A stretch of 64,000 bases of DNA from Escherichia phage PBM-2, in the sequence record PV029541. One strand, given 5' to 3'. How positions within the stretch are numbered: position 1 is the stretch's first letter; each line of letters starts with the position of its first letter. The notes below the pieces were generated by a model that ran no database searches, was not told where the DNA came from, and worked only from the letters and a program-made list of their open reading frames with translations. Of this stretch, positions 139-49,975 are shown one piece after another. A program made the position numbers and the translations under genes.

Positions 139-465
139 ATGAAAACTTTAATTGCTGTTGCTGTAGTAGCTTTATCAGCTCTGTCATTCAATGCTCAAGC
201 ATCCAGCCGTGAAACCTTGTTGGAAGCTGCTGCTGATTACAAAGCCAATAATGCAAACTTTGTGAACCAGGGTTACTTCATGGGCATGGTTACTATGGGT
301 GTAGAAGCGGGAAAGAACTGCGTACCAGATAGTTTGAAGTTAGGAAATGTCTTTGACAAAGTAGCCACTATTATCCTGTACGACCGAAAGGTTAATGCAG
401 TAAAAGTGCCATCAGACATGGTTCTAATGGCAATTGATACAGCCTACCCATGTATTAAATCTTAA
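139..465 (+). CDS. small secreted protein with N-terminal signal peptide, function unknown
   Basis: N-terminus MKTLIAVAVVALSALSFNAQASS has a charged n-region, hydrophobic core and AQA-type cleavage site; two Cys in the mature part. Confidence 0.5.
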   Translation: MKTLIAVAVVALSALSFNAQASSRETLLEAAADYKANNANFVNQGYFMGMVTMGVEAGKNCVPDSLKLGNVFDKVATIILYDRKVNAVKVPSDMVLMAIDTAYPCIKS

Positions 466-499
466 TTAGTAATTCCATTAACTTTAGGAGAGTAAGTAA

Positions 500-1552
500 A
501 TGGCGAGCATTGACTCACTGACCGTATGTAATACACGTCAGGCCCGTAACTTTATTATTCGTGCCCTGCAAGCAGGTAACGTACCATTCCTGACTTCATC
601 ACCAGGCATGGGTAAATCTGCAATTATTCGTTCTGTTGCAGAAGAATTTGGTATGAAGCTGATAGACCATCGTCTGTCTACTTCTGCCCCGGAAGACTTA
701 TCTGGTTTACCATTCCGTAATGGTGACCGTGCAGAGTTTATCCCATTCGCTGATTTATTCCCTATTGAGGGGGATGAAATACCAGAAGGATATAATGGTT
801 GGCTCTTGTTCCTTGATGAGTTCCCATCTGCTCGCAAAGAAGTAATAGCTGCTGCATATAAACTGATTCTAGACCGTATGACTGGTCAGAAAAAACTCCA
901 TCCTAATGTGATGATTATCTGCGCTGGTAACAAGGCTACTGACCGTGCCATTGTTAACCCACTGGGTACTGCAATGCAGTCTCGTGTTGTCCACTTCGAA
1001 ATGGAACTTAACTTCGACATCTTTGTTGAAGACGTAATGATTCCACAACAATGGGATGAACGCCTGGTTGCATTCCTACATGCTAATCCAGGTTATCTGC
1101 ATGACTTTGACCCAGCCCATAAGAACAAAACGTTCTGTTGTCCTCGTACCTGGGACTTTGTTAATAAAGACCTCAAGAACCGTCCTGAAGGTGCTCTGCC
1201 TGACGAAGATTCTATCTACTATGCAGGACACGTTACTGCTGGTAAGGCTACAGAATTTGTTCAGTTTACTCAGGTATACAATCGTATGATTACGATTGAG
1301 AAGGTAGTAAAAGACCCTTTGGGCTGTGCACTACCAGAAGATAACAACCTGTGCTGGGCTACCGTTAACCATCTGGCTAACAAAACCACTGAGGAAAACT
1401 TCGCTGATGTTCTTCAGTACATCGAACGCTTTAAAACGTTCACCCATAAGATTCTGTACTTCCGTACAGTAGGCAGAGCATTACCAGAACTTCAGGCTAC
1501 CCCTGAATGGCGTAAGGCTGCTGCTAATATCTCTCGTTACCTTCACGGATAA
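500..1552 (+). CDS. AAA+ ATPase, MoxR/AAA_5-like
   Basis: Walker A SPGMGKS, Walker B LLFLDEF, sensor-1-like CAGNKATDR; RBS GGAGAG upstream; followed 4 nt later by a vWA-type partner gene. Confidence 0.75.
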   Translation: MASIDSLTVCNTRQARNFIIRALQAGNVPFLTSSPGMGKSAIIRSVAEEFGMKLIDHRLSTSAPEDLSGLPFRNGDRAEFIPFADLFPIEGDEIPEGYNGWLLFLDEFPSARKEVIAAAYKLILDRMTGQKKLHPNVMIICAGNKATDRAIVNPLGTAMQSRVVHFEMELNFDIFVEDVMIPQQWDERLVAFLHANPGYLHDFDPAHKNKTFCCPRTWDFVNKDLKNRPEGALPDEDSIYYAGHVTAGKATEFVQFTQVYNRMITIEKVVKDPLGCALPEDNNLCWATVNHLANKTTEENFADVLQYIERFKTFTHKILYFRTVGRALPELQATPEWRKAAANISRYLHG

Positions 1553-1556
1553 AATA

Positions 1557-2732
1557 ATGAACCAATTTCCTCAGCACTCCCTTAGTGATGAACAACTCAT
1601 GCGTGAATATGATCGTATTCAGGCTCAGACTTTCCTAGGCAAGTCTGCTGCGTTCTTTGGTTCATTACTATGTAGCCTTAAGTTCTCATGGAAACGTGAG
1701 GATTGTCCCACCGCATGTACTGATGGGATAGAACTACACTTCAACCCGGATTTCTTTATCTGGATGTGTCCAGACGCAAGAGAAACAGTGTTAATGCACG
1801 AACTCTGGCATGTAGCATATCTGCATGACATCCGTCGTGGAAGCCGTGACCCAGAAATCTGGAACCAGGCATGTGACCACTTCATTAACCTCCAGTTAGA
1901 AGAAGATGGTTACAAGTTCACTGGTATTGATGAAGGTATTTGCAAAGACCCTCAATATAAAGGATGGGTTGAAGAAGACATCTACGATGACCTGATGAAG
2001 AACCCTCAGAAAAGGCAGAAGCCGTCAGGGGGTGCTGGAGCAGGTCTTGCTGGCGACATGAAATCCCCCTCTTCGGGGCAGTCCCAGGGTGCTGTTGTCA
2101 ACAACGTAGTACGTGCAATGCAGAGCCAGAAAATGGCTGGTGGAACAATGCCTGGTAAGGGTGCTGGTCGTATGGAAGAGGTTATTACCCAATTCCTCAA
2201 ACCAGTGGTTCCATGGCAGGAAGTTCTGATGAACTTCTTTACCGACATTGACGATACTCATTATACGTGGGCCAGACCTAACCGTCGTTACACTGACATC
2301 TATCTACCTTCCATGGAAGATGATGAAGGACGTCTACGACACTTAGCCTACTTTGAGGATGTATCTGGTTCCATTAGTAGTGCTGACTCTCTGCGATTTA
2401 ACTCAGAAGTTGCCTATGTCAAGAGCCAGTTCAATCCTAAGAAGATGTCCTTAATTACCTTCGACGATATTATCCAAGAAGAGATAGACATCACTGAAGA
2501 AGATACTTTTGAAGAGATTAAGATTACTGGTCGTGGTGGTACAAGCCTTGTGCCAGTACGAGATTGGATTATTAAGAATAAGCCAACTGCTGCAATCATA
2601 TTCTCCGATATGTATGTTCATCCAATGGAAGAATTACCATTTGATATTCCTATCATCTGGTGTGTTCTGAATAATCCCAATGCTACCGTACCTTTTGGGG
2701 AGGTAGTTCATATCCCTAAAGGAATGAAATAA
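1557..2732 (+). CDS. vWA/DUF2201-like protein with HExxH metallopeptidase-like motif (partner of the MoxR-like ATPase)
   Basis: LMHELWHVAYLHD motif in the N-terminal half, vWA-like C-terminal region; tight spacing after the ATPase gene suggests an operon. Confidence 0.6.
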   Translation: MNQFPQHSLSDEQLMREYDRIQAQTFLGKSAAFFGSLLCSLKFSWKREDCPTACTDGIELHFNPDFFIWMCPDARETVLMHELWHVAYLHDIRRGSRDPEIWNQACDHFINLQLEEDGYKFTGIDEGICKDPQYKGWVEEDIYDDLMKNPQKRQKPSGGAGAGLAGDMKSPSSGQSQGAVVNNVVRAMQSQKMAGGTMPGKGAGRMEEVITQFLKPVVPWQEVLMNFFTDIDDTHYTWARPNRRYTDIYLPSMEDDEGRLRHLAYFEDVSGSISSADSLRFNSEVAYVKSQFNPKKMSLITFDDIIQEEIDITEEDTFEEIKITGRGGTSLVPVRDWIIKNKPTAAIIFSDMYVHPMEELPFDIPIIWCVLNNPNATVPFGEVVHIPKGMK

Positions 2733-3238
2733 TGGTTGTTAATGGTAATTCTCTATACCGTTCATCTCAGTTGCTGGATGTCCCAGACCGTAAGATATCA
2801 GAGCATGGTGTAAGCTATGGATTAGGTGAAGCTGGTTATGATATTCGTATCAAACAAGACATTACCTTCTATCGCTTATTTGGGTTGATTCCAATGGTGA
2901 AAGTCGTTGATGGAAATCAAGTATCACGCCATCTCGGTAAGTTCACCTTGGCTTCAGCAATTGAGAAGTTCAACATGTCTCCATCCTGTGTAGCTATCGT
3001 TCACGATAAGTCTACGTGGGCAAGACGTGCATTATCAGTGTTCAATACCGTGATTGAGCCAGGTTGGAAAGGGTATCTTACCCTTGAACTGGTCTATCAT
3101 GGTCGTAAGAAACTACATATCCCGGCTGGTGCTGGGATAGCTCAAGTATTATTTCATCTGGTTCAGGAACCTGCTAATTACAATGGCAAGTATCAGAACC
3201 AGGAAAACCAACCAGTAGCTGCTAGACCTTCAAAATAA
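2732..3238 (+). CDS. dCTP deaminase-like protein (dUTPase superfamily)
   Basis: GYDIRI and STWARRALSVFNTVIEPGWKGYLTLELVYHG segments resemble Dcd/dUTPase-fold motifs; ATG overlaps the upstream stop (ATAATGG). Confidence 0.55.
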   Translation: MVVNGNSLYRSSQLLDVPDRKISEHGVSYGLGEAGYDIRIKQDITFYRLFGLIPMVKVVDGNQVSRHLGKFTLASAIEKFNMSPSCVAIVHDKSTWARRALSVFNTVIEPGWKGYLTLELVYHGRKKLHIPAGAGIAQVLFHLVQEPANYNGKYQNQENQPVAARPSK

Positions 3239-3506: not shown

Positions 3507-3542
3507 GTGAAGAAACTAACTCAACCCCACATAGGAACCATC

Positions 3543-3785
3543 ATGGAATCTTTAGCAGCAATCCTTGTTTTCTTATTCATACTAGCTGTATACCTCATCC
3601 CTACTATCATTGCTTTTGCACGAGGCCATGCCTCCAAGTGGGGTATTGGTGTACTCAATATTGTATTAGGCTGGTCACTGGTATTCTGGGTAGTAGCACT
3701 GATTTGGGCACTGTCCAACAAAGGGCAAAGCCAAGTTACAAACGTAACTGTTGTTCAAACCAATGGCGGTAGTAAAGCAGAGTAA
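3543..3785 (+). CDS. small two-TM membrane protein, superinfection-immunity (Imm)-like
   Basis: ATG at 3543 preceded by AGGA; two hydrophobic helices (LAAILVFLFILAVYLIPTIIAF and IGVLNIVLGWSLVFWVVALIWAL) with a GW...W..AL.WA pattern recalled from Imm-type proteins. Confidence 0.4.
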   Translation: MESLAAILVFLFILAVYLIPTIIAFARGHASKWGIGVLNIVLGWSLVFWVVALIWALSNKGQSQVTNVTVVQTNGGSKAE

Positions 3786-3859: not shown

Positions 3860-3890
3860 AAGCCCACCTAACCAGTGGGCTTTTTTATTT
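3860..3890 (+). terminator. rho-independent terminator
   Basis: AGCCCAC-CTAACCA-GTGGGCT stem-loop followed by TTTTTTATTT. Confidence 0.6.
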
Positions 3891-23938: not shown

Positions 23939-24109
23939 ATGAACAAATTTACTATTCACTGGCTCAATGGAAAGGTTAGTTCTTTCGTGGGTGGAGAACC
24001 TGTTGAAGGGAACAAAGCATTCCACATTGATTCAGAAGGTTGCAAAATCTTAATACCATATGCTTGGTATAAAGATGGTGAAGTAAAGGCATTAAAAAAG
24101 AGTAGTTAA
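23939..24109 (+). CDS. small hypothetical protein (56 aa)
   Basis: ATG at 23939 with GAGG 8 nt upstream; below the length cutoff of the supplied ORF track. Confidence 0.35.
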   Translation: MNKFTIHWLNGKVSSFVGGEPVEGNKAFHIDSEGCKILIPYAWYKDGEVKALKKSS

Positions 24110-24789
24110 TATCGTGAAGGGTTCTGTTAGAATCCTTTGAGATAGGAACTCCTATCATAACCTTTCTTAACTTAATCTTTGCCGTATGGCACTGACGCTA
24201 GGGGTGGACCCCCATCCGTCAGACAGACTATTTTAAGAATTGGTTATCACAGCAAATGTAAAGCAACATTCGGGTTAATCAATGGCCTCTCCCTATAGGG
24301 GCCATTTCTGAATCTTAGGCTATATCCCAAAGGTTAGTATCTTTAGGATAAGGCTTCAGATCCCTTATCAAACTAACCGCTCAATGTTGAGCATTCTAAT
24401 CACATAAGCCCCTATATGGGCTGGGTTAAATGTCGGATAGCCTAGCTACCTACAACATCGAACTGTTAGATCTTACATGCAATATAGGGTATAAAGGGAG
24501 GATTCGTCCCCTCCCCCCTATTATGGGCTATCAGTGAGTGCATTAGTTGATTAGCTGTGGAAGGTAGGCCGATGTCCACAAGCGTGGCCCAGAGCTAGTG
24601 TACTCTTTGATAGTTTTCGTAAGCGATTATGCGGTTTTTTAGAAACGAACCAATAACATAAATGCAAACGATGATGTTGTTCTGATGGCAGCCTAATAAG
24701 CCAAGCGTCAGTCAGGAGTGAGTCGTCCTGATTATCAAACGACCGTGGAGTGTCCCCGTCCATGTATTAGAAACGGGGAGTTAATCAAT

Positions 24790-24867
24790 GGTATGTGATA
24801 GCTCAAATAGGTAGAGCGTGAGGCTACAGTGCTGAATGGTTTGTGGGTTCGATTCCCACCCATGCCT
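24790..24867 (+). tRNA. tRNA-like gene, isotype unassigned (possibly degenerate)
   Basis: Canonical 5' half (U8 A9, D arm GCTC-AAATAGGTA-GAGC) and T arm GTGGG-TTCGATT-CCCAC, but acceptor pairing is imperfect and the anticodon stem is weak when folded by hand. Confidence 0.35.
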
Positions 24868-24933
24868 ACAGTCCAGACGATATCTGAGTGACTATAAAAA
24901 CAGATGGAGCCAGGTGGAATCCCTGGCAATTAA

Positions 24934-25000
24934 TTCCGGTGTAGGTACTAGTGTCGTGCACGGCATGAGTGTTCTGGTTCGAGTCCAGACGCCGGAACCA
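24934..25000 (+). tRNA. tRNA-like element with encoded CCA, shortened
   Basis: T arm TCTGG-TTCGAGT-CCAGA, acceptor TCCGGTG/CGCCGGA, discriminator A then CCA; only about 63 nt between acceptor strands, so D and anticodon arms cannot both be canonical. Confidence 0.35.
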
Positions 25001-25002
25001 AT

Positions 25003-25126
25003 TATCAGTTGCACGAGATGGCTTGACATGTTCAAGTTTGGACTAAGTGTGACACCGCTAGATTGGAGGGCTGCTGCGGTAAGCTATAGACTCCAACCGG
25101 AGGTTCGAATCCTTCACTGATAACCA
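25003..25126 (+). tRNA. tRNA-like element with encoded CCA, elongated
   Basis: Perfect 7-bp acceptor pairing TATCAGT (25003-25009) / ACTGATA (25116-25122), T arm GGAGG-TTCGAAT-CCTTC, A + CCA; the 121-nt span is too long for a standard tRNA. Confidence 0.3.
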
Positions 25127-25573
25127 ATTCAAAGTAGCATTGTATATTTAAATGTTTCCCGGCATTTAAAGCACCCACCGTGACAGTGCTACTCTAAATT
25201 GGAAGAATTATGGGGGTAAGTCGTAACCATACGACGGCGTAAGTACCAGATGAGACTTCTGGACGCCCCTACCATATTTGAGGTGTAACAGTTAAATCCA
25301 GTTGCCGGAAGTGCAATTCTAGATACGCTGCCAATGTGTGAACGGTAAGGCTGTACAGGACTCGGACTCCCACCTCAAACCAAAGTCGCCAGGTACTTAT
25401 GGCAAACGGGTAGTAACGAACTAGTCATTCGTCAAACGCCCAACCCAATTATGAGTCAGCAAGAACGCCTTCACTTAAACTTAAACAAAAAAGCTTAACG
25501 CAATAATTATGTAGGGGTATGTAAGGATTGCGAAGAAGGAGCCAGTTAGAGTCTGGCATGACTCACCTATTAA

Positions 25574-25649
25574 TACCCGGTAGGCTTAGTGGTAAAGCCC
25601 CACTAGTAAACCAACTAGGACGCAGGTTCGAATCCTGTCCGGGTAACCA
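25574..25649 (+). tRNA. tRNA gene with encoded CCA, anticodon arm irregular
   Basis: Acceptor TACCCGG/CCGGGTA, D arm GGCT-TAGTGGTAA-AGCC, T arm GCAGG-TTCGAAT-CCTGT, A + CCA, 73 nt + CCA; anticodon arm pairs only as CTAG(T)/(A)CTAG, leaving a 6- or 8-nt loop. Confidence 0.5.
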
Positions 25650-25655
25650 TATTAT

Positions 25656-25729
25656 GTCCGCTTAGCTTAGACTGGGAAAGCAACCGACTAATAATCGGAA
25701 AGTCACTGGTTCAAATCCAGTAGTGGACA
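25656..25729 (+). tRNA. tRNA gene, apparent anticodon AAU (Ile-type) if the hand fold is right
   Basis: Full cloverleaf, 74 nt: acceptor GTCCGCT/AGTGGAC, D arm GCTT-AGACTGGGA-AAGC, anticodon arm ACCGA-CTAATAA-TCGGA, T arm ACTGG-TTCAAAT-CCAGT; no encoded CCA. Confidence 0.6.
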
Positions 25730-25974
25730 CCCATTTAGCAGTAACATAGTCCTGATTGCATCGCACTCTAAAGACAACACTGGTAAGACAGTCCAGTGGC
25801 TGCTATTGTATTGTTATTCCCTTCGACGGGAATTTCGCTGGAGAATAGGAACTCCTTAAATCCTAGCCTGAGTAATTACCACAGGAACGGGACTATCAAT
25901 CCCAAGCCTGGTCAGCGTGGACTGTCTTCGTGGTAAGAACCAAAAGCCTCCCAGCTATGGGTAAATAGTACTAA

Positions 25975-26008
25975 GTCCCCTGGAGCCGTCACTCTGGGGG
26001 ACTTTTTT
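25975..26008 (+). terminator. rho-independent terminator closing the tRNA cluster
   Basis: GTCCCC...GGGGGAC stem followed by TTTTTTATTT. Confidence 0.55.
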
Positions 26009-26037
26009 ATTTGAGTATTAATAATTGGATAATCAAT

Positions 26038-26196
26038 ATGATTGACCTAATCTCAACCCCGTATGCCTATGAGGTAACGGATAATCGAGGACGCAAGTCT
26101 TTGGTGTTTGCAGGTAGCGTAGCCTATAACAACGCAGTCATGTTTAAGTACAAACTCAAACCACTCTATGAGGCTAATAATGGCAACAGTAAGTAA
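26038..26196 (+). CDS. small hypothetical protein
   Basis: ATG at 26038 (the ORF-track start at 26011 is TTG inside the terminator T-run); no clear RBS. Confidence 0.3.
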   Translation: MIDLISTPYAYEVTDNRGRKSLVFAGSVAYNNAVMFKYKLKPLYEANNGNSK

Positions 26197-26560
26197 AGAA
26201 GCAATCGAAGCTAAGATTAAGAGCGTCTACTATTTTAATGGAGCTGATGCAGTGAAGTCTGCATTTGTTGATCCATCTGCACTCCCGGCAGATGATTTGG
26301 CTAACCTGGGTCTGATAACCTATTGCATTATCATCTTGGAAAATGGCTTCAAAGTTGAAGGTGTATCTGCCTGTGTTGACCCAGCTATCTATGATGAGCA
26401 AAAAGGCCGTCAGTATGCATATGAAAATGCATTCAATAAGATTTGGGAATTAGAAGGTTACCTGCTACGTCAGGCACTGCATGAGAAAGAAGAGACTGCT
26501 AAAGCTCTGGCTTCCTTTGCAGAAAACAACACCTGTGATGGTGGTGGTTGTACAATCTGA
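26180..26560 (+). CDS. hypothetical protein
   Basis: ATG at 26180 with GAGG 6 nt upstream; conserved-looking core GVSACVDPAIYDEQKGRQYAYENAFNKIWELEGY; no family recognised. Confidence 0.45.
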   Translation: MATVSKEAIEAKIKSVYYFNGADAVKSAFVDPSALPADDLANLGLITYCIIILENGFKVEGVSACVDPAIYDEQKGRQYAYENAFNKIWELEGYLLRQALHEKEETAKALASFAENNTCDGGGCTI

Positions 26561-44341: not shown

Positions 44342-44370
44342 AGGGGGACATTAGTCCCCCTTGTTTTATT
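44342..44370. terminator. strong stem-loop downstream of the major capsid gene
   Basis: AGGGGGAC-ATTA-GTCCCCCT perfect 8-bp stem; T-run (TGTTTTATTT) is on the + strand although flanking genes are on the - strand. Confidence 0.4.
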
Positions 44371-44378
44371 TCGGACTA

Positions 44379-45581
44379 TTACAGAGGAGCAACAGTCTTA
44401 ATCATAGCCAGACGTTCTGGGCGTTTAACCAGGATACCGTAGTACCACTTGATAGAACTGAAGCCAGTTTCACCATACGGGTCATTACGGTCAGCAGTTT
44501 CTTTACCAGGCATCTTAGTCATGATGGAGAACTTAACAGACTTACCATCAGTCTGGAAGCCAATGGTAGAGAAGGAGTCATCACCAACTACCAGCATCGG
44601 GAATACGTCGTAGTGTTCCTGACCACCAACCATAGTAGAACGATAGCCTGGGTTAGAAGTAGCCTGAGCACCAGCACCTGCCCAATGCAGCATCTCAGGA
44701 ACCTGGATAATACGGAACTTGTCGATACAACCAACTTCACCATTCATCAGAGTACCGGCATCAGCATAGTGCTGAATTTCGATGAATGCTTTGTTACCGA
44801 ACAGATCTTTCATCGCTTTCAGTTCTGGAACCAATTCAGAACCAACGTACATTACACGAGTACCACCAAGTACTTTGGTATCAGTCAGTTTAGAACCAGT
44901 GATAATAGTAGTCTGAGTCGGGGTACGGTTCTCAGTAAGAATCTGGTCAAGACGCATCAGGTTCTTATAAGAAACTACAGACGGAGTAGAACCATCACCG
45001 GTGATGGTAGCATCAGAAGTAGCAGCACCTGCATACAATACAGTACCAGCAGCAGCAAGCAGGTCTTTCTGGAGAACAGCTTCAGTCAACTGTACAGCAC
45101 CGTTCATCAGTTCACGAGACAGGTGTTCTTTCAGCTGGTCATCAGAATCAAAGTCCAGAGACTCTTGAGTAAATTCATAGAAGAAACCGAACTTATGGAT
45201 GGAGCCTTCACGAGACAGACGGGTAAAGCCTACACGGTTAACACGACCACCATTCTCTGTCAGCAGAGGCAGTTTGGAAGTGATGTTACCTACGTCTTTA
45301 GAAGAACCATACAGGTTCCCATTAACAATGGTAGCACCATTAGCATCAATGCCCTGGTCGTTAATGTTCTTATCGTCGAGCAGTGGAACGTACTCATACA
45401 CCTTAACAGTCTTACCATAGTTCTTAGGCATGTTAATGGTGTTAGCCAGTGGCATGAAGTACTGGTCTTTACGAGACTGAATAATAGCTTTCTTCAGCCA
45501 GTAAAAGGTATTCATCTGATCGGAACCAGCACCATCAATGCTAGATTTCTGACCGTCAATTGGAGCGTTATAGTTTAACAT
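44379..45581 (-). CDS. major capsid protein
   Basis: 400 aa, matching the size recalled for N4 major capsid protein (about 401 aa); position after portal and scaffold-like genes. Confidence 0.75.
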
Positions 45582-47195: not shown

Positions 47196-49466
47196 TTACA
47201 AGTTCATGCCAAGAGCCGATGCTGGGTCTTGGCTAGGGTCATAGAATTGGGAACTAAGTGAATAAGCTGGGTCTTGTTGTGCAGCTAAGTCACGTTCTGG
47301 TATAGAGTTCCCATTAGTCAAAGCGTTATATCCAACAGCAGCAGATATGTTGGGGGTAGTTTCACCTTCTTTAGTAGGTGTTGTCAACGCCTTAGTTATC
47401 TGAAGATTCTGGTTTCCTTGAGATTGTGCTTTTTGTTTTTCCATGTCACGAGCATGTTTAGTACCAGATTCCTGTTCCAGATAATCCAGATCTTTAAGGT
47501 CACCACTAGAAGCAGCCTCTTTAGCCTTAGCCATATTGAGTGCAATCTTACTTTGCAGCTCTTCGTTCTCAAGCTGTGCTTTCTGAATTGCCAATTGCTT
47601 AAGCTGTTCTTCCATAGGGTCTGGTTGTGGTTGCCATGTACGTAACTCATGAGCAAGGTCTGGCATACGTTTAAGTTCTGCAATCTTAGCTACAAGAGAT
47701 AACGTAATAGTCTGGTCAACCGTATTACCTAACGTTTGAACCATGAAGCTCAAGTCCTGGGATTTCTGGTTATCAATCTCAGCAGTATTAATATCAACTT
47801 CAATGTCGAAATTACCTTTAAGGTCTTCACGGTTAATCTCTACGTACTGCTCGTTAGTAATACGTACTACTTCTTTCTCAGATAAGAACACAGCATTCAT
47901 TGCACAAATCTTAGTACCAATGTCTGCCATACCCTTAGCTAATCGACGAAGGATTGCCATCTCACGTTTGGATGCTGCATCTAGTACACCACGAATACCA
48001 GCAGCTACATCTCCGTAAGCTTCACCAGTTACACCACCCGAGAATGCTTTAACACCCGTTAGTGCTTCTGCTTCCTGGTTTTGCATCTGAGTCATTACTA
48101 TTGCCGACTGGGGTAACTCAGGGAACTTGTGTTCCATAATGGCCTGACTAGGATTGCCCTGCATTGGGTTATATTCGTAGTCTTGTCCATCATCGTATCG
48201 ACGACGGTTCAAGGTATCTAACATCCCTTTAGGATAACCACGTTGACCATTTGCACTTCGGCCCAACAGGTCAATCATCCCACGCATGGTTGCACCAAGA
48301 ATTGCTTGGTTATCTCCTAGCAATTCAGCATCAGCTTCACCATAGAGTTCACGTTTACGAGGCATATAAGGAACAACTACCAATGGTAACTTACCATCTG
48401 GGAATGGGTTCTTCTCCATACGAATAAGAGTAGAACCAATCCAGGTAGCAACAATTGGTTCCAGTGAACCATCATCATTGATGTCGTAGAATCCCCAGTA
48501 CTCATAAGCAACTACCTTCTTACGAAGTGCATCCTTAAACTGGAAATCGCTAGGGGTTTTACTTTCATGGTCTGGGTCAGTAATGGGGCTGGAACTCTCC
48601 CAGTCAATTTTATCTAGGTTGTGATAACGGTCTTTGTTTTTCATAAGGTCTGCTTTGCAAGTCTCAAAGGAAATGACTGCATACAGAGCCTTATCCAAAT
48701 CACCATTGCAGCTCGGGTCAATAACTACGTTATTAGGATTAAGCATTTCAACGGTAGGTCTGTTAACCAGTGCTTTTTCTACTTCTACTTCAGTGACCCC
48801 TGTCTGAATTGCATAAGTAGCTTCTCCAGTTTCATTGAAGTAGTTAACAGCTTCTTTGATATCTTCTGGCATTGTTTCGTCATACTCACGGGGATTCTCT
48901 GCCTGAAGCTGCAAAGCCTGTTGGAGAACATCTGCTTGTTCCTGGTTCTCAATTGGATACAACTGGAAGACTGGAGTTTCTGTTTTAATCTTAATAGTCT
49001 TACGTTCCCAACCGATACGAGCAATACCAGTACCGTCATCTACGACACTATGCACGTAATCATCTACCAGTTTTACTTTATTAAGCTGAGTACGGAATTG
49101 GTAGTTAAGAACTAGCTCATTCTGGCGTGCAGCTAACTCATCTTCAAAAGTAACCGGAGTTACCTTAAATAGTTTGTTAGACGAGAGGAATGGTTCAGAC
49201 AATGGAGCATAACGCCACTCTGCCTGACGGCGAACCAGTCTAGGCTGGACTTGCGAGCGTCCCTTAACCTTTGGGGGTTTAGCCTTACCCTTTACTTCCA
49301 TTAAATCATTCCACTCACGAATCTGTGCCATGATTGCATCGTGAGCAGGTTTAGCAGATTCCAAATCACCCTTCAGTAATTGGATACTTGGTTCCTTCTT
49401 CCAGTCCGTTAACTTCTCTGATTGAGCCGGGTCTGGTAAAGGCTTAAAAGTGTCTTGGTGTTCCAT
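47196..49466 (-). CDS. portal protein
   Basis: 756 aa, size and position consistent with the N4 portal (about 760 aa); upstream of scaffold and capsid genes. Confidence 0.7.
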
Positions 49467-49468
49467 AG

Positions 49469-49975
49469 TTATTCCTGTTCAAAAAGTTTACGGTCAGCCT
49501 GAATCTGTTTACCCAACTCAATTAGTTGGCTGTCACGGAGTCTAACAGTTGCCCGGAGTTCTTCAACCAAACGTCTGCCTTCTTCAAGACTATTGTCGAG
49601 TCTGGCTGCATGGCTTGCAAGACTTCTGCACTCAAGGGTTCCGGCTTCGGCTTGACGTTTATATACCGATGCTCGTCTTTCAGACTGTTGCATCCGGCTG
49701 TCGTAATCACTGCTAACGCGAGCAAGCTCGCTTGCGTAATTACTCTCAGCCGTCTGCAACCGGGAAGTGAGTAACCCGACTTCATAACTATGGTTTCTTT
49801 GGAGAGCATTGTATTTGTCCTGTAATTTTTGCGTTGCCTTTTGGTCTTCGACCTTTTGGGCATCCCATTTCTTTTGAACAGTAGACTGCCCATTGGAATT
49901 GCCCCAAAAGTAAATGGTGGCCCCAAGGACCACCACCAGAAGATAAGGCCAACCTTTAGAGATTAGCATCTTCAT
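49469..49975 (-). CDS. i-spanin (Rz-like)
   Basis: N-terminal TM ([22 protein letters not shown]) followed by coiled-coil-rich periplasmic domain; start set at ATG 49975; contains an embedded lipoprotein ORF. Confidence 0.55.
49522..49785 (-). CDS. o-spanin (Rz1-like) embedded in the Rz gene in another frame
   Basis: [32 protein letters not shown]: signal peptide with lipobox (TAGC); Pro-rich mature part; lies wholly inside the Rz ORF in a different frame. Confidence 0.5.
   Translation of the reverse strand: MKSGYSLPGCRRLRVITQASLLALAVITTAGCNSLKDEHRYINVKPKPEPLSAEVLQAMQPDSTIVLKKADVWLKNSGQLLDSVTAN

Follow-up and report, generated by a model that had tools for sequence, protein, structure and literature searches.

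A conserved ATPase and a putative metallopeptidase-vWA partner in N4-like phages, with relatives in other phages and on plasmids

Introduction

What do two adjacent genes, one for an AAA+ ATPase and one for a protein that joins a putative metallopeptidase domain to a von Willebrand factor A (vWA) domain, do during phage infection? Such a pair occupies positions 500-2732 of the stretch of DNA that we analysed, 64,000 nucleotides (nt) of Escherichia phage PBM-2 (record PV029541), hereafter called the window. The pair is already known as gp24/gp25 of phage N4: these are two of only about 14 genes common to all N4-like phages, bear the labels 'unknown' and 'vWFA domain' where the core genes are listed (Chan et al. 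2014, PMC4193335), are included again in the pan-proteome table for Schitoviridae (Wittmann et al. 2020, PMC7650795) and have no function assigned to them in the literature. The N4-like phages (Schitoviridae) form a large, therapy-relevant family, of which N4 is a classic model. The combination of a MoxR AAA+ ATPase with a metallopeptidase-vWA protein is likewise already in print for the group 2.2 jumbo phages, where an analogy to the tail-growth chaperones of Acidianus two-tailed virus led to virion assembly and proteolytic processing being proposed as its role (Iyer et al. 2021, PMC7824862).

We propose, with moderate confidence, that the two proteins form an ATP-dependent metalloprotease or remodeller in two parts and that, in the middle phase of infection, it works on a client that is cytoplasmic and no part of the virion. 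What is new here is the placement of the ATPase in its clade through intermediates, the invariance of the active sites, a quantified synteny, the homologues on plasmids, a three-gene variant and a weak link to the dCTP deaminase gene (dcd) that is limited to a lineage. With three chemistries strictly conserved and the pair present on plasmids as well, the search for a function can be confined to a cytoplasmic step driven by an enzyme.

Results

Domains of the two proteins

The two genes and the features within them are the following.

500..1552, + strand: AAA+ ATPase gene, 350 amino acids (aa), an open reading frame (ORF) orthologous to N4 gp24
602..619, + strand: Walker A, SSPGMGKS (P35-G-M-G38-K39-S40), conserved in homologues
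665..799, + strand: ATPase insert, residues 56-100, between strand 2 and the Walker B strand, containing the invariant DHRLSTSAPEDLSGLP motif
803..820, + strand: Walker B, LLFLD106E107, conserved in homologues
1553..1556, + strand: spacer AATA, 4 nt, between the ATPase stop TAA (1550-1552) and the partner ATG (1557)
1557..2732, + strand: partner protein gene, 391 aa, an ORF orthologous to N4 gp25
1605..2315, + strand: DUF2201_N putative metallopeptidase domain, residues 17-253, from Pfam
1797..1811, + strand: HExxH (H81 E82 L W H85), from motif and conservation
2268..2288, + strand: W-x-R-P-N-R-R motif, residues 238-244, conserved, in a low-confidence segment just before the vWA domain
2343..2714, + strand: vWA-like domain (DUF2201), residues 263-386, with a complete MIDAS (D268-x-S270-x-S272, T329, D351)

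An ORF check returned the same two reading frames, with the same 4 nt between them, as the initial annotation of this locus, which had been made from the sequence alone. That annotation had also read an HExxH-like motif and a vWA-like C-terminus in the partner, and both stand. The peptide LMHELWHVAYLHD spans residues 79-91 and includes H81-E82-x-x-H85; PF13203 (DUF2201_N, putative metallopeptidase domain) matches the partner with an E value of 4.4e-56 (190.9 bits, cutoff 23.2) and PF09967 (DUF2201, VWA-like domain) with one of 4.7e-34 (117.6 bits, cutoff 26.4). More than 1,200 partner homologues were found at E<=1e-3, and both domains were present in 120 of 120 among the matches listed.

The partner is thus built of an N-terminal putative zinc metallopeptidase, a flexible Gly/Ser-rich linker and a C-terminal vWA/MIDAS domain. 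Its AlphaFold2 model (predicted local confidence, pLDDT, 79.6; low at 158-164 and 230-256) has a helical N-terminal domain with a small sheet, the Gly/Ser-rich linker at low confidence and a C-terminal alpha/beta domain. In the modelled N-terminal domain, strands 42-45, 53-55 and 59-62 lead to helix 72-87, which holds the HExxH motif, and then to helix 99-116, which holds D107 and N111; as modelled, this order of elements is the one expected of a zincin. The C-terminal half has a vWA fold, with the NorD VWA domain and the midasin MIDAS domain among its structural neighbours. The hit lists were dominated by this half and no solved zincin was among the structure matches of the partner, so that what speaks for a peptidase is the Pfam family together with the conserved motif. 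Solved structures were also searched by sequence, with the single proteins and with the family profiles, and gave noise only (midasin at 0.0036 and 0.014, an integrin I-domain at 0.15), and by sequence the pair appears to have no solved relative.

The initial annotation had also credited the ATPase with Walker A, Walker B and sensor motifs. All are present (G38 K39 S40; D106 E107; N144 as sensor 1), together with a candidate arginine finger, R162, and in an alignment of 44 homologues of 49-82% identity the residues G38-K39-S40, D106-E107, N144, R162 and R216 are invariant. So are D56, H57, R58, T61, S62, P64, D66, G69 and P71 of the DHRLSTSAPEDLSGLP motif, just after strand 2, of which the P-D/E-G-P portion is retained in plasmid and jumbo-phage relatives too. 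The AlphaFold model is confident (pLDDT 87.8), and NorQ, CbbQ and midasin are among its best fold neighbours, the closest solved folds being those of that clade. A core of the midasin/dynein/CbbQ/NorQ type (AAA_5-like) is followed by a family-specific helical part at about residues 200-350; the C-terminal ~130 residues are helical in the model and without a family match in Pfam. Short strands at 127 and 132-133 stand ahead of strand 137-144. Between strand 53-58 and the Walker B strand (101-106), an insert of 40 residues is mostly coil at a pLDDT of about 53-73, and its modelled shape is unreliable.

Is this ATPase a MoxR protein? In Pfam only the generic AAA family matched it above cutoff (E 1.2e-5); AAA_5 reached 14.9 bits (cutoff 22, E 0.028), bpMoxR 13.3 bits (cutoff 27), AAA_3 gave no match, and a scan of NCBIfam gave none either. 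AAA_5 is the dynein-related family, which also includes MoxR proteins of the CbbQ/NorQ type. It matched 19 of 44 close homologues at E<=0.01, and five relatives of the ATPase family (from a Wroclawvirus jumbo phage, a cyanophage, a contig of an archaeal metagenome-assembled genome (MAG) and two plasmids) exceeded its cutoff with 22.3-27.9 bits, the same five matching the ATPase family profile at E values of 1e-35 to 1e-50. As it is these relatives, and not the window protein, that pass the cutoff, the ATPase belongs to the AAA_5/MoxR clade via intermediates only. It is a member of the midasin/dynein/MoxR branch of AAA+, in a divergent family of its own, and is not a canonical MoxR (AAA_3). The name 'MoxR-like' that it had first received is therefore right for the clade and wrong for MoxR in the strict sense; likewise, of the two families named with it, DUF2201 (with DUF2201_N) exceeds its cutoff in the partner, while AAA_5 stays below threshold in the ATPase. 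More than 1,200 ATPase homologues were found at E<=1e-3, and the ATPase profile matched 14,135 clusters of a representative library at 50% identity; with families of this size, the features of the two proteins cannot be put down to chance. None of the 150 library matches listed was a bridge to canonical MoxR, all being full-length orthologues at E<1e-90; the bridge was obtained instead by the Pfam scan of plasmid and phage relatives.

Conservation of the active sites

We followed the active-site residues through 80 viral contigs encoding partner relatives, together with loci from other sources. In the partner, H81, E82 and H85 are kept in 87 of 87 aligned homologues, H90 in 85 of 87, and D107 and N111 in 88 of 88; the MIDAS residues D268, S270, S272, T329 and D351 are kept in 89 of 89, down to about 22-30% identity. 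ATPase G38 and K39 are found in 74 of 74, where S40 is S in 72 and T in 2, and D106 and E107 in 77 of 77; K39, D106, E107, N144, R162 and R216 are present in all aligned homologues (n = 74-77). Over the N4-like phages, which infect many hosts, the mean column identity of the ATPase and partner alignments is 55-58%.

Twelve distant relatives of 22-30% identity were followed separately: they come from four other phage groups (a jumbo phage, a Vequintavirus and a cyanophage among them), an archaeal-MAG contig and six plasmids. All twelve keep ATPase K39, N144, R162 and R216, and all twelve keep the partner HExxH, H90, D107, N111 and the MIDAS residues D268, S270, S272 and T329. There are two departures: two plasmids have D in place of Walker B E107, and in two plasmids the last MIDAS Asp is unaligned. 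Conservation to this degree suggests that selection maintains all three activities (ATP hydrolysis, zinc chemistry and MIDAS binding), and the pair is probably enzymatically active.

A further conserved feature of the partner is the W-x-R-P-N-R-R segment, in which W238, R243 and R244 are invariant and R240, P241 and N242 at least 90% conserved (43 partner sequences). Of the 12 distant relatives, 10 retain the P-x-R-R core of this segment, the other two being the Wroclawvirus protein (L094), which has P-S-R-K, and that of Synechocystis plasmid pSYSA (L097), which is without the core. The pLDDT is below 50 at 230-242 and 244-256, and the segment is a candidate contact with the ATPase.

Gene order

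The ATPase gene is upstream of the partner gene and on the same strand in all 67 viral loci in which both were detected. The gap between them is 30 nt or less in 27 loci, 31-300 nt in 7, 301-1000 nt in 23 and above 1 kb in 10. Where no ATPase was detected, the upstream sequence was shorter than 1.3 kb in eleven viral loci and 3.1 kb long in one. In N4 itself, gp24 and gp25 are full-length orthologues of the window proteins (62% and 61% identity, respectively), and the order gp24-gp25-dCTP deaminase-...-gp30/ThyX-rIIA-rIIB is that of the window; the N4 gap is 167 nt instead of 4 nt, with no other notable difference. The N4 record describes both proteins as 'similar to S. coel. protein 1/2'.

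Of 76 viral loci, 20 have the dCTP deaminase gene directly after the partner, 13 have it nearby, and the other 43, which all belong to more distant relatives, lack it in the flank; it is also absent from the six plasmid contexts of the pair that we examined. The pair is thus the unit, and the dcd linkage is a feature of a lineage. A client in nucleotide metabolism, which the overlap of the partner and dcd genes had suggested, was downgraded for this reason.

Other genes may come to stand within the pair. A gene for an HNH homing endonuclease is inserted beside or between the two in some coliphages (U1G, UE-S5a, G7C). Seventeen distant N4-like environmental contigs (about 30% identity) have a conserved gene of about 220 aa between ATPase and partner (L065:3144-3797 and 16 further ORFs, in L066-L092), and in other contigs this position is taken by another family, with six ORFs of about 300 aa. 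Three of four members scanned of the ~220-aa family had matches to Nmad5 ('nucleotide modification associated domain 5'), at E 0.005-0.03; these being sub-threshold only, the lead was dropped. We also considered the intervening genes as a third component like the DUF3150-like one described below and rejected this.

Distribution in phages and plasmids

With tblastn, the partner was found in 730 phage records and the ATPase in 823. Among the loci examined, the module extends beyond the N4-like phages to the ~384-kb jumbo coliphage WPEC3, to Wroclawvirus, to Vequintavirus (rV5) and to the cyanophage Synechococcus phage MinM2, and matches similar to those of WPEC3 occur in other phages of 326-384 kb. 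The WPEC3 pair has the same two-protein architecture as that of the window, with the genes side by side, E values of 1e-38 and 1e-42 to the family profiles and the catalytic residues kept; its proteins, of 442 and 469 aa, exceed those of the window in length and share about 25% identity with them.

Partner homologues are also present on 107 plasmid records, of which 30 are conjugative, 32 mobilizable and 45 non-mobilizable. We examined six plasmid contexts, and every one has a same-strand ATPase gene of this family upstream, either directly or with one or two genes intervening; the E values are 1e-40 to 1e-44 in five of the plasmids and, in that of Rhodococcus, 6.5e-17.

Synechocystis pSYSA: ATPase immediately upstream, 4-nt overlap, named 'MoxR family ATPase' by NCBI
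Sphaerospermopsis plasmid: ATPase immediately upstream
Rhodococcus plasmid: ATPase immediately upstream, its ORF missing from the plasmid's gene table
Burkholderia plasmid: ATPase two genes upstream, with a beta-clamp-like gene and a ~300-aa DUF3150-like gene between
Cupriavidus plasmid: ATPase one gene upstream, with a DUF3150-like gene between
Rhodovastum plasmid: ATPase one gene upstream, with a DUF3150-like gene between

There is thus a three-gene variant of the module, in which a DUF3150-like protein of about 300 aa is encoded between the ATPase and vWA genes; its carriers are plasmids of Proteobacteria, Synechococcus phage MinM2 and one viral contig (L095:4078-8179, L098:3913-7143, L099:3945-7170, L003:1629-6086 and L088:13-1898). 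Its ATPase and DUF2201 vWA protein are of the same families as those of the window, with the catalytic residues kept, whereas the window has no DUF3150 homologue. The Burkholderia cassette has in addition the beta-clamp-like gene (PF02767, 3.9e-9) and adjoins type IV secretion genes.

A scan of a genome collection returned mostly contigs of N4-like phages binned into MAGs, not cellular homologues. Two very large bacterial contigs, a Roseococcus MAG contig of 297 kb (L005) and contig2 of Mesorhizobium yinganensis CN2-181, of 727 kb (L006), have the order ATPase-DUF2201 protein-dCTP deaminase-...-ThyX, with pair proteins 44-59% identical to those of the window. These loci are either an N4-like element integrated or carried in Alphaproteobacteria or an assembly chimera; the former, if true, would come as a surprise, the family being considered strictly lytic.

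Discussion

A putative split metalloprotease

How might such a pair work? The closest model for its mechanism is NorQ-NorD. There, the VWA domain inserts a finger into the pore of the AAA+ hexamer, where it touches the helix-2 inserts, and rotation driven by ATP puts strain on the NorD linker, by which the client is remodelled; similar arrangements have been noted for CbbQO and midasin (PMC13036017). By analogy, the gp24-like ATPase would form a ring of the MoxR/midasin type, a form that we infer, and the vWA domain of the gp25-like partner would dock on it as NorD does on NorQ. The MIDAS metal site of the partner would grip an acidic residue of the client protein. ATP hydrolysis would then pull or twist the partner, so that the client would be remodelled and presented to the HExxH zinc-peptidase domain beyond the flexible linker, and this domain would cut it. 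Insert 56-100 of the ATPase is presumed, on the NorQ-NorD model, to be a helix-2 insert contacting the partner, and this acidic, invariant insert (...APEDLSGLP) and the basic WxRPNRR segment may be the surfaces that meet. Catalysis is favoured over mere metal binding, because the glutamate of the HExxH motif is invariant. A coupling of the two proteins is supported by the fixed gene order in the 67 viral loci and, in the window, by the 4-nt gap and the one strong ribosome-binding site ahead of the ATPase.

In its domain logic, this would be an FtsH-like machine split over two polypeptides, with a MIDAS adaptor added. The likeness to FtsH, an AAA+ motor with an HExxH metallopeptidase, is a functional analogy, as no homology was detected: FtsH is a single membrane-anchored polypeptide of another AAA clade, with an M41 peptidase and no vWA/MIDAS domain. 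Midasin/Rea1, in turn, has the AAA ring and the MIDAS in one polypeptide, but this eukaryotic protein has about 4,700-4,900 residues and six AAA modules fused together, lacks a protease and serves ribosome assembly.

The client would be cytoplasmic, a host protein or a non-structural phage protein, because the pair lies in a middle block of genes, has a non-structural context in rV5 and Wroclawvirus, and is carried by plasmids, elements without virions. Pair and client would meet during establishment of the incoming element and replication of its genome, and the client would not be part of the virion.

Several points weigh against a split protease of this kind. The window ATPase falls below the gathering scores of both AAA_5 and AAA_3. 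For its third zinc ligand the partner has no more than candidates, H90 and D107. The partners in NorQ-NorD, CbbQ-CbbO and RavA-ViaA have no peptidase domain, and these systems act by remodelling or metal insertion, not by degradation; their sequence similarity to the window pair is at noise level, and the window ATPase has its additional helical C-terminus of about 130 aa. A distance of 3.6 kb separates the two genes in Vequintavirus, where they are on opposite strands, an arrangement which, with the ten viral loci whose gap exceeds 1 kb, means that tight co-translation is not required. The high, core-gene conservation of the pair is unusual if the client is a fast-evolving host defence protein. 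Finally, the literature on DUF2201/PF13203/COG3864, on MoxR in Schitoviridae and on N4 essential-gene screens yielded no experimental paper and no functional study of any family member, and the statement of the initial annotation that the role in infection is not established still holds.

Other explanations

One might speculate that the module is a general tool of mobile DNA and not a particle factor. The split metalloprotease would then clear a DNA-associated or replication-blocking protein at establishment; host factors, defence factors and covalent adducts are all conceivable. The DUF3150-like and occasional beta-clamp-like parts of the plasmid and cyanophage version hint at such a link to DNA. 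We regard this as a tentative idea; if true, the tool would be common to N4-like phages, several jumbo or large myophages, cyanophages and conjugative plasmids.

A role as virion-assembly chaperone and maturation protease, in which the pair folds, assembles or trims a structural protein, seems unlikely to us. It is the role proposed for the jumbo-phage pair by Iyer et al. 2021 (PMC7824862), the MoxR/vWA pair p618/p892 of Acidianus two-tailed virus acts in tail growth, and the two genes belong to the core alongside structural core genes (PMC4193335, PMC7650795). In WPEC3, moreover, the pair follows three 'virion structural protein' genes (thymidylate synthase and DprA genes come after it). In the N4-like phages, however, location speaks against a p618/p892-type chaperone: the pair is in the block of middle genes, flanked by RNA polymerase II (RNAP II) genes on one side and dcd, ThyX and rIIAB genes on the other, and is about 25 kb from the block of virion RNA polymerase (vRNAP) and structural genes, on the opposite strand. 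The 'middle region' of the initial annotation is well chosen here, since the orthologues gp24/gp25 are cited as middle transcripts of N4 by Chan et al. (PMC4193335). In Vequintavirus (rV5) and Wroclawvirus too, the module sits among non-structural genes. Modules with intact catalytic residues are present on conjugative and non-mobilizable plasmids, which build no virions, and these homologues argue against virion assembly as the general role of the module.

We are equally doubtful about a counter-defence or host-takeover protease, which would destroy a host defence or housekeeping protein so that the phage or plasmid can establish itself. The module is common to phages and conjugative plasmids, that is, to elements that need to survive entry, it is located in early or middle regions, and MoxR-vWA cores are used in bacterial conflict systems (PMC7159879). 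The pSYSA pair (plasmid pSYSA_M of Synechocystis sp. PCC 6803, L097, positions 23953-26231) lies amid toxin-antitoxin genes (DUF433/PIN-like, HepT, DUF1778/GNAT) and a DUF262 gene, a neighbourhood of the conflict-island type. Core status and the very high conservation given above are, however, unlike those of typical anti-defence genes, and PADLOC gave a match to the window pair at noise level only. In addition, the third components of the ternary MoxR-vWA conflict systems (VMAP, FtsH-like or beta-propeller; Kaur et al. 2020) and their effectors are not found beside the window pair, whose neighbours are a small secreted protein and dCTP deaminase, and bpMoxR is sub-threshold.

Very improbable, last, is a non-proteolytic maturation factor on the model of NorQD, CoxDE, CbbQO or the CobST/BchID chelatases, which would insert metal into, or re-activate, a phage or host enzyme (one of nucleotide metabolism, for example) and use the HExxH domain for metal binding or docking: such a role matches that of characterised MoxR-vWA pairs (PMC13036017, PMC7159879), the overlap of the partner stop with the dCTP deaminase start, the ThyX gene that follows in N4-like phages and the thymidylate synthase and DprA genes of WPEC3, but the invariant HExxH glutamate is a catalytic base and not a ligand, and the dcd linkage is limited to closer relatives.

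Annotation of the partner and of related loci

The partner carries the label 'HNH endonuclease' in phrog_1314, in many RefSeq or Pharokka-style records, in N4 gp25 (NC_008720, L101:3165-4307) and in Escherichia phage PBM-3 (PBM3_57c). This label is unsupported, as no HNH family was among the Pfam matches of the partner, even at E<=10. The real HNH homing endonuclease genes that stand beside or between the pair in some coliphages may be the source of the wrong label. A gain for annotation is thus to replace it by 'metallopeptidase/vWA domain protein, partner of MoxR-like ATPase'. In Klebsiella phage vB_Kpl_K57alpha1.2 (OY979416.1), the sole feature under the match to the pair, at 47434-49834, is 'virion RNA polymerase', which looks like an annotation error.

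Source phage and transcription unit

By nucleotide comparison, positions 400-2800 of the window match PBM-3 at 100% identity. There are 59 other matching coliphage records, among them G7C-type phages and three named Gamaleyavirus, and most of these are 91-95% identical. PBM-3 is classified as Gamaleyavirus, Enquatrovirinae, Schitoviridae, and the window phage is a Gamaleyavirus (N4-like coliphage). The remaining features of the transcription unit around the pair are these.

486..490, + strand: Shine-Dalgarno sequence AGGAG, read from the sequence, 9 nt 5' of the ATPase ATG
2732..3238, + strand: dCTP deaminase gene, whose start overlaps the partner stop (TAATG)
3860..3882, + strand: first strong terminator-like hairpin with T-run downstream, from a consensus scan only

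AGGAG is the one strong ribosome-binding site before the ATPase. The dCTP deaminase gene is part of the same operon, yet probably outside the functional module. The hairpin at 3860..3882 is the likely end of the transcription unit, as judged from its consensus; the same scan gave a weak 5-bp terminator-like hit within the ATPase gene, at 1140-1156.

Two small genes close to the pair have immunity-like names or features. Directly upstream of the ATPase, positions 139-465 (+ strand) encode a 108-aa protein with a signal-like hydrophobic N-terminus, called 'tai4 protein' in the PBM-3 annotation and belonging to phrog_11132; its match to Rap1a (type VI amidase-effector immunity) is weak and sub-threshold (E 0.002, 19.1 bits, cutoff 27.7). 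This would be a periplasmic immunity-like protein within a lytic phage. Just 5' of the terminator, positions 3507-3785 (+ strand) encode a small two-helix membrane protein, named 'immunity protein' in PBM-3, which is a possible superinfection-exclusion gene of the same transcription unit.

Far from the pair, two ORFs of about 400 aa, at 44361-45578 (+ strand) and 44379-45581 (- strand), overlap almost completely on opposite strands; presumably one of them is a genuine late gene, with the other as its antisense shadow.

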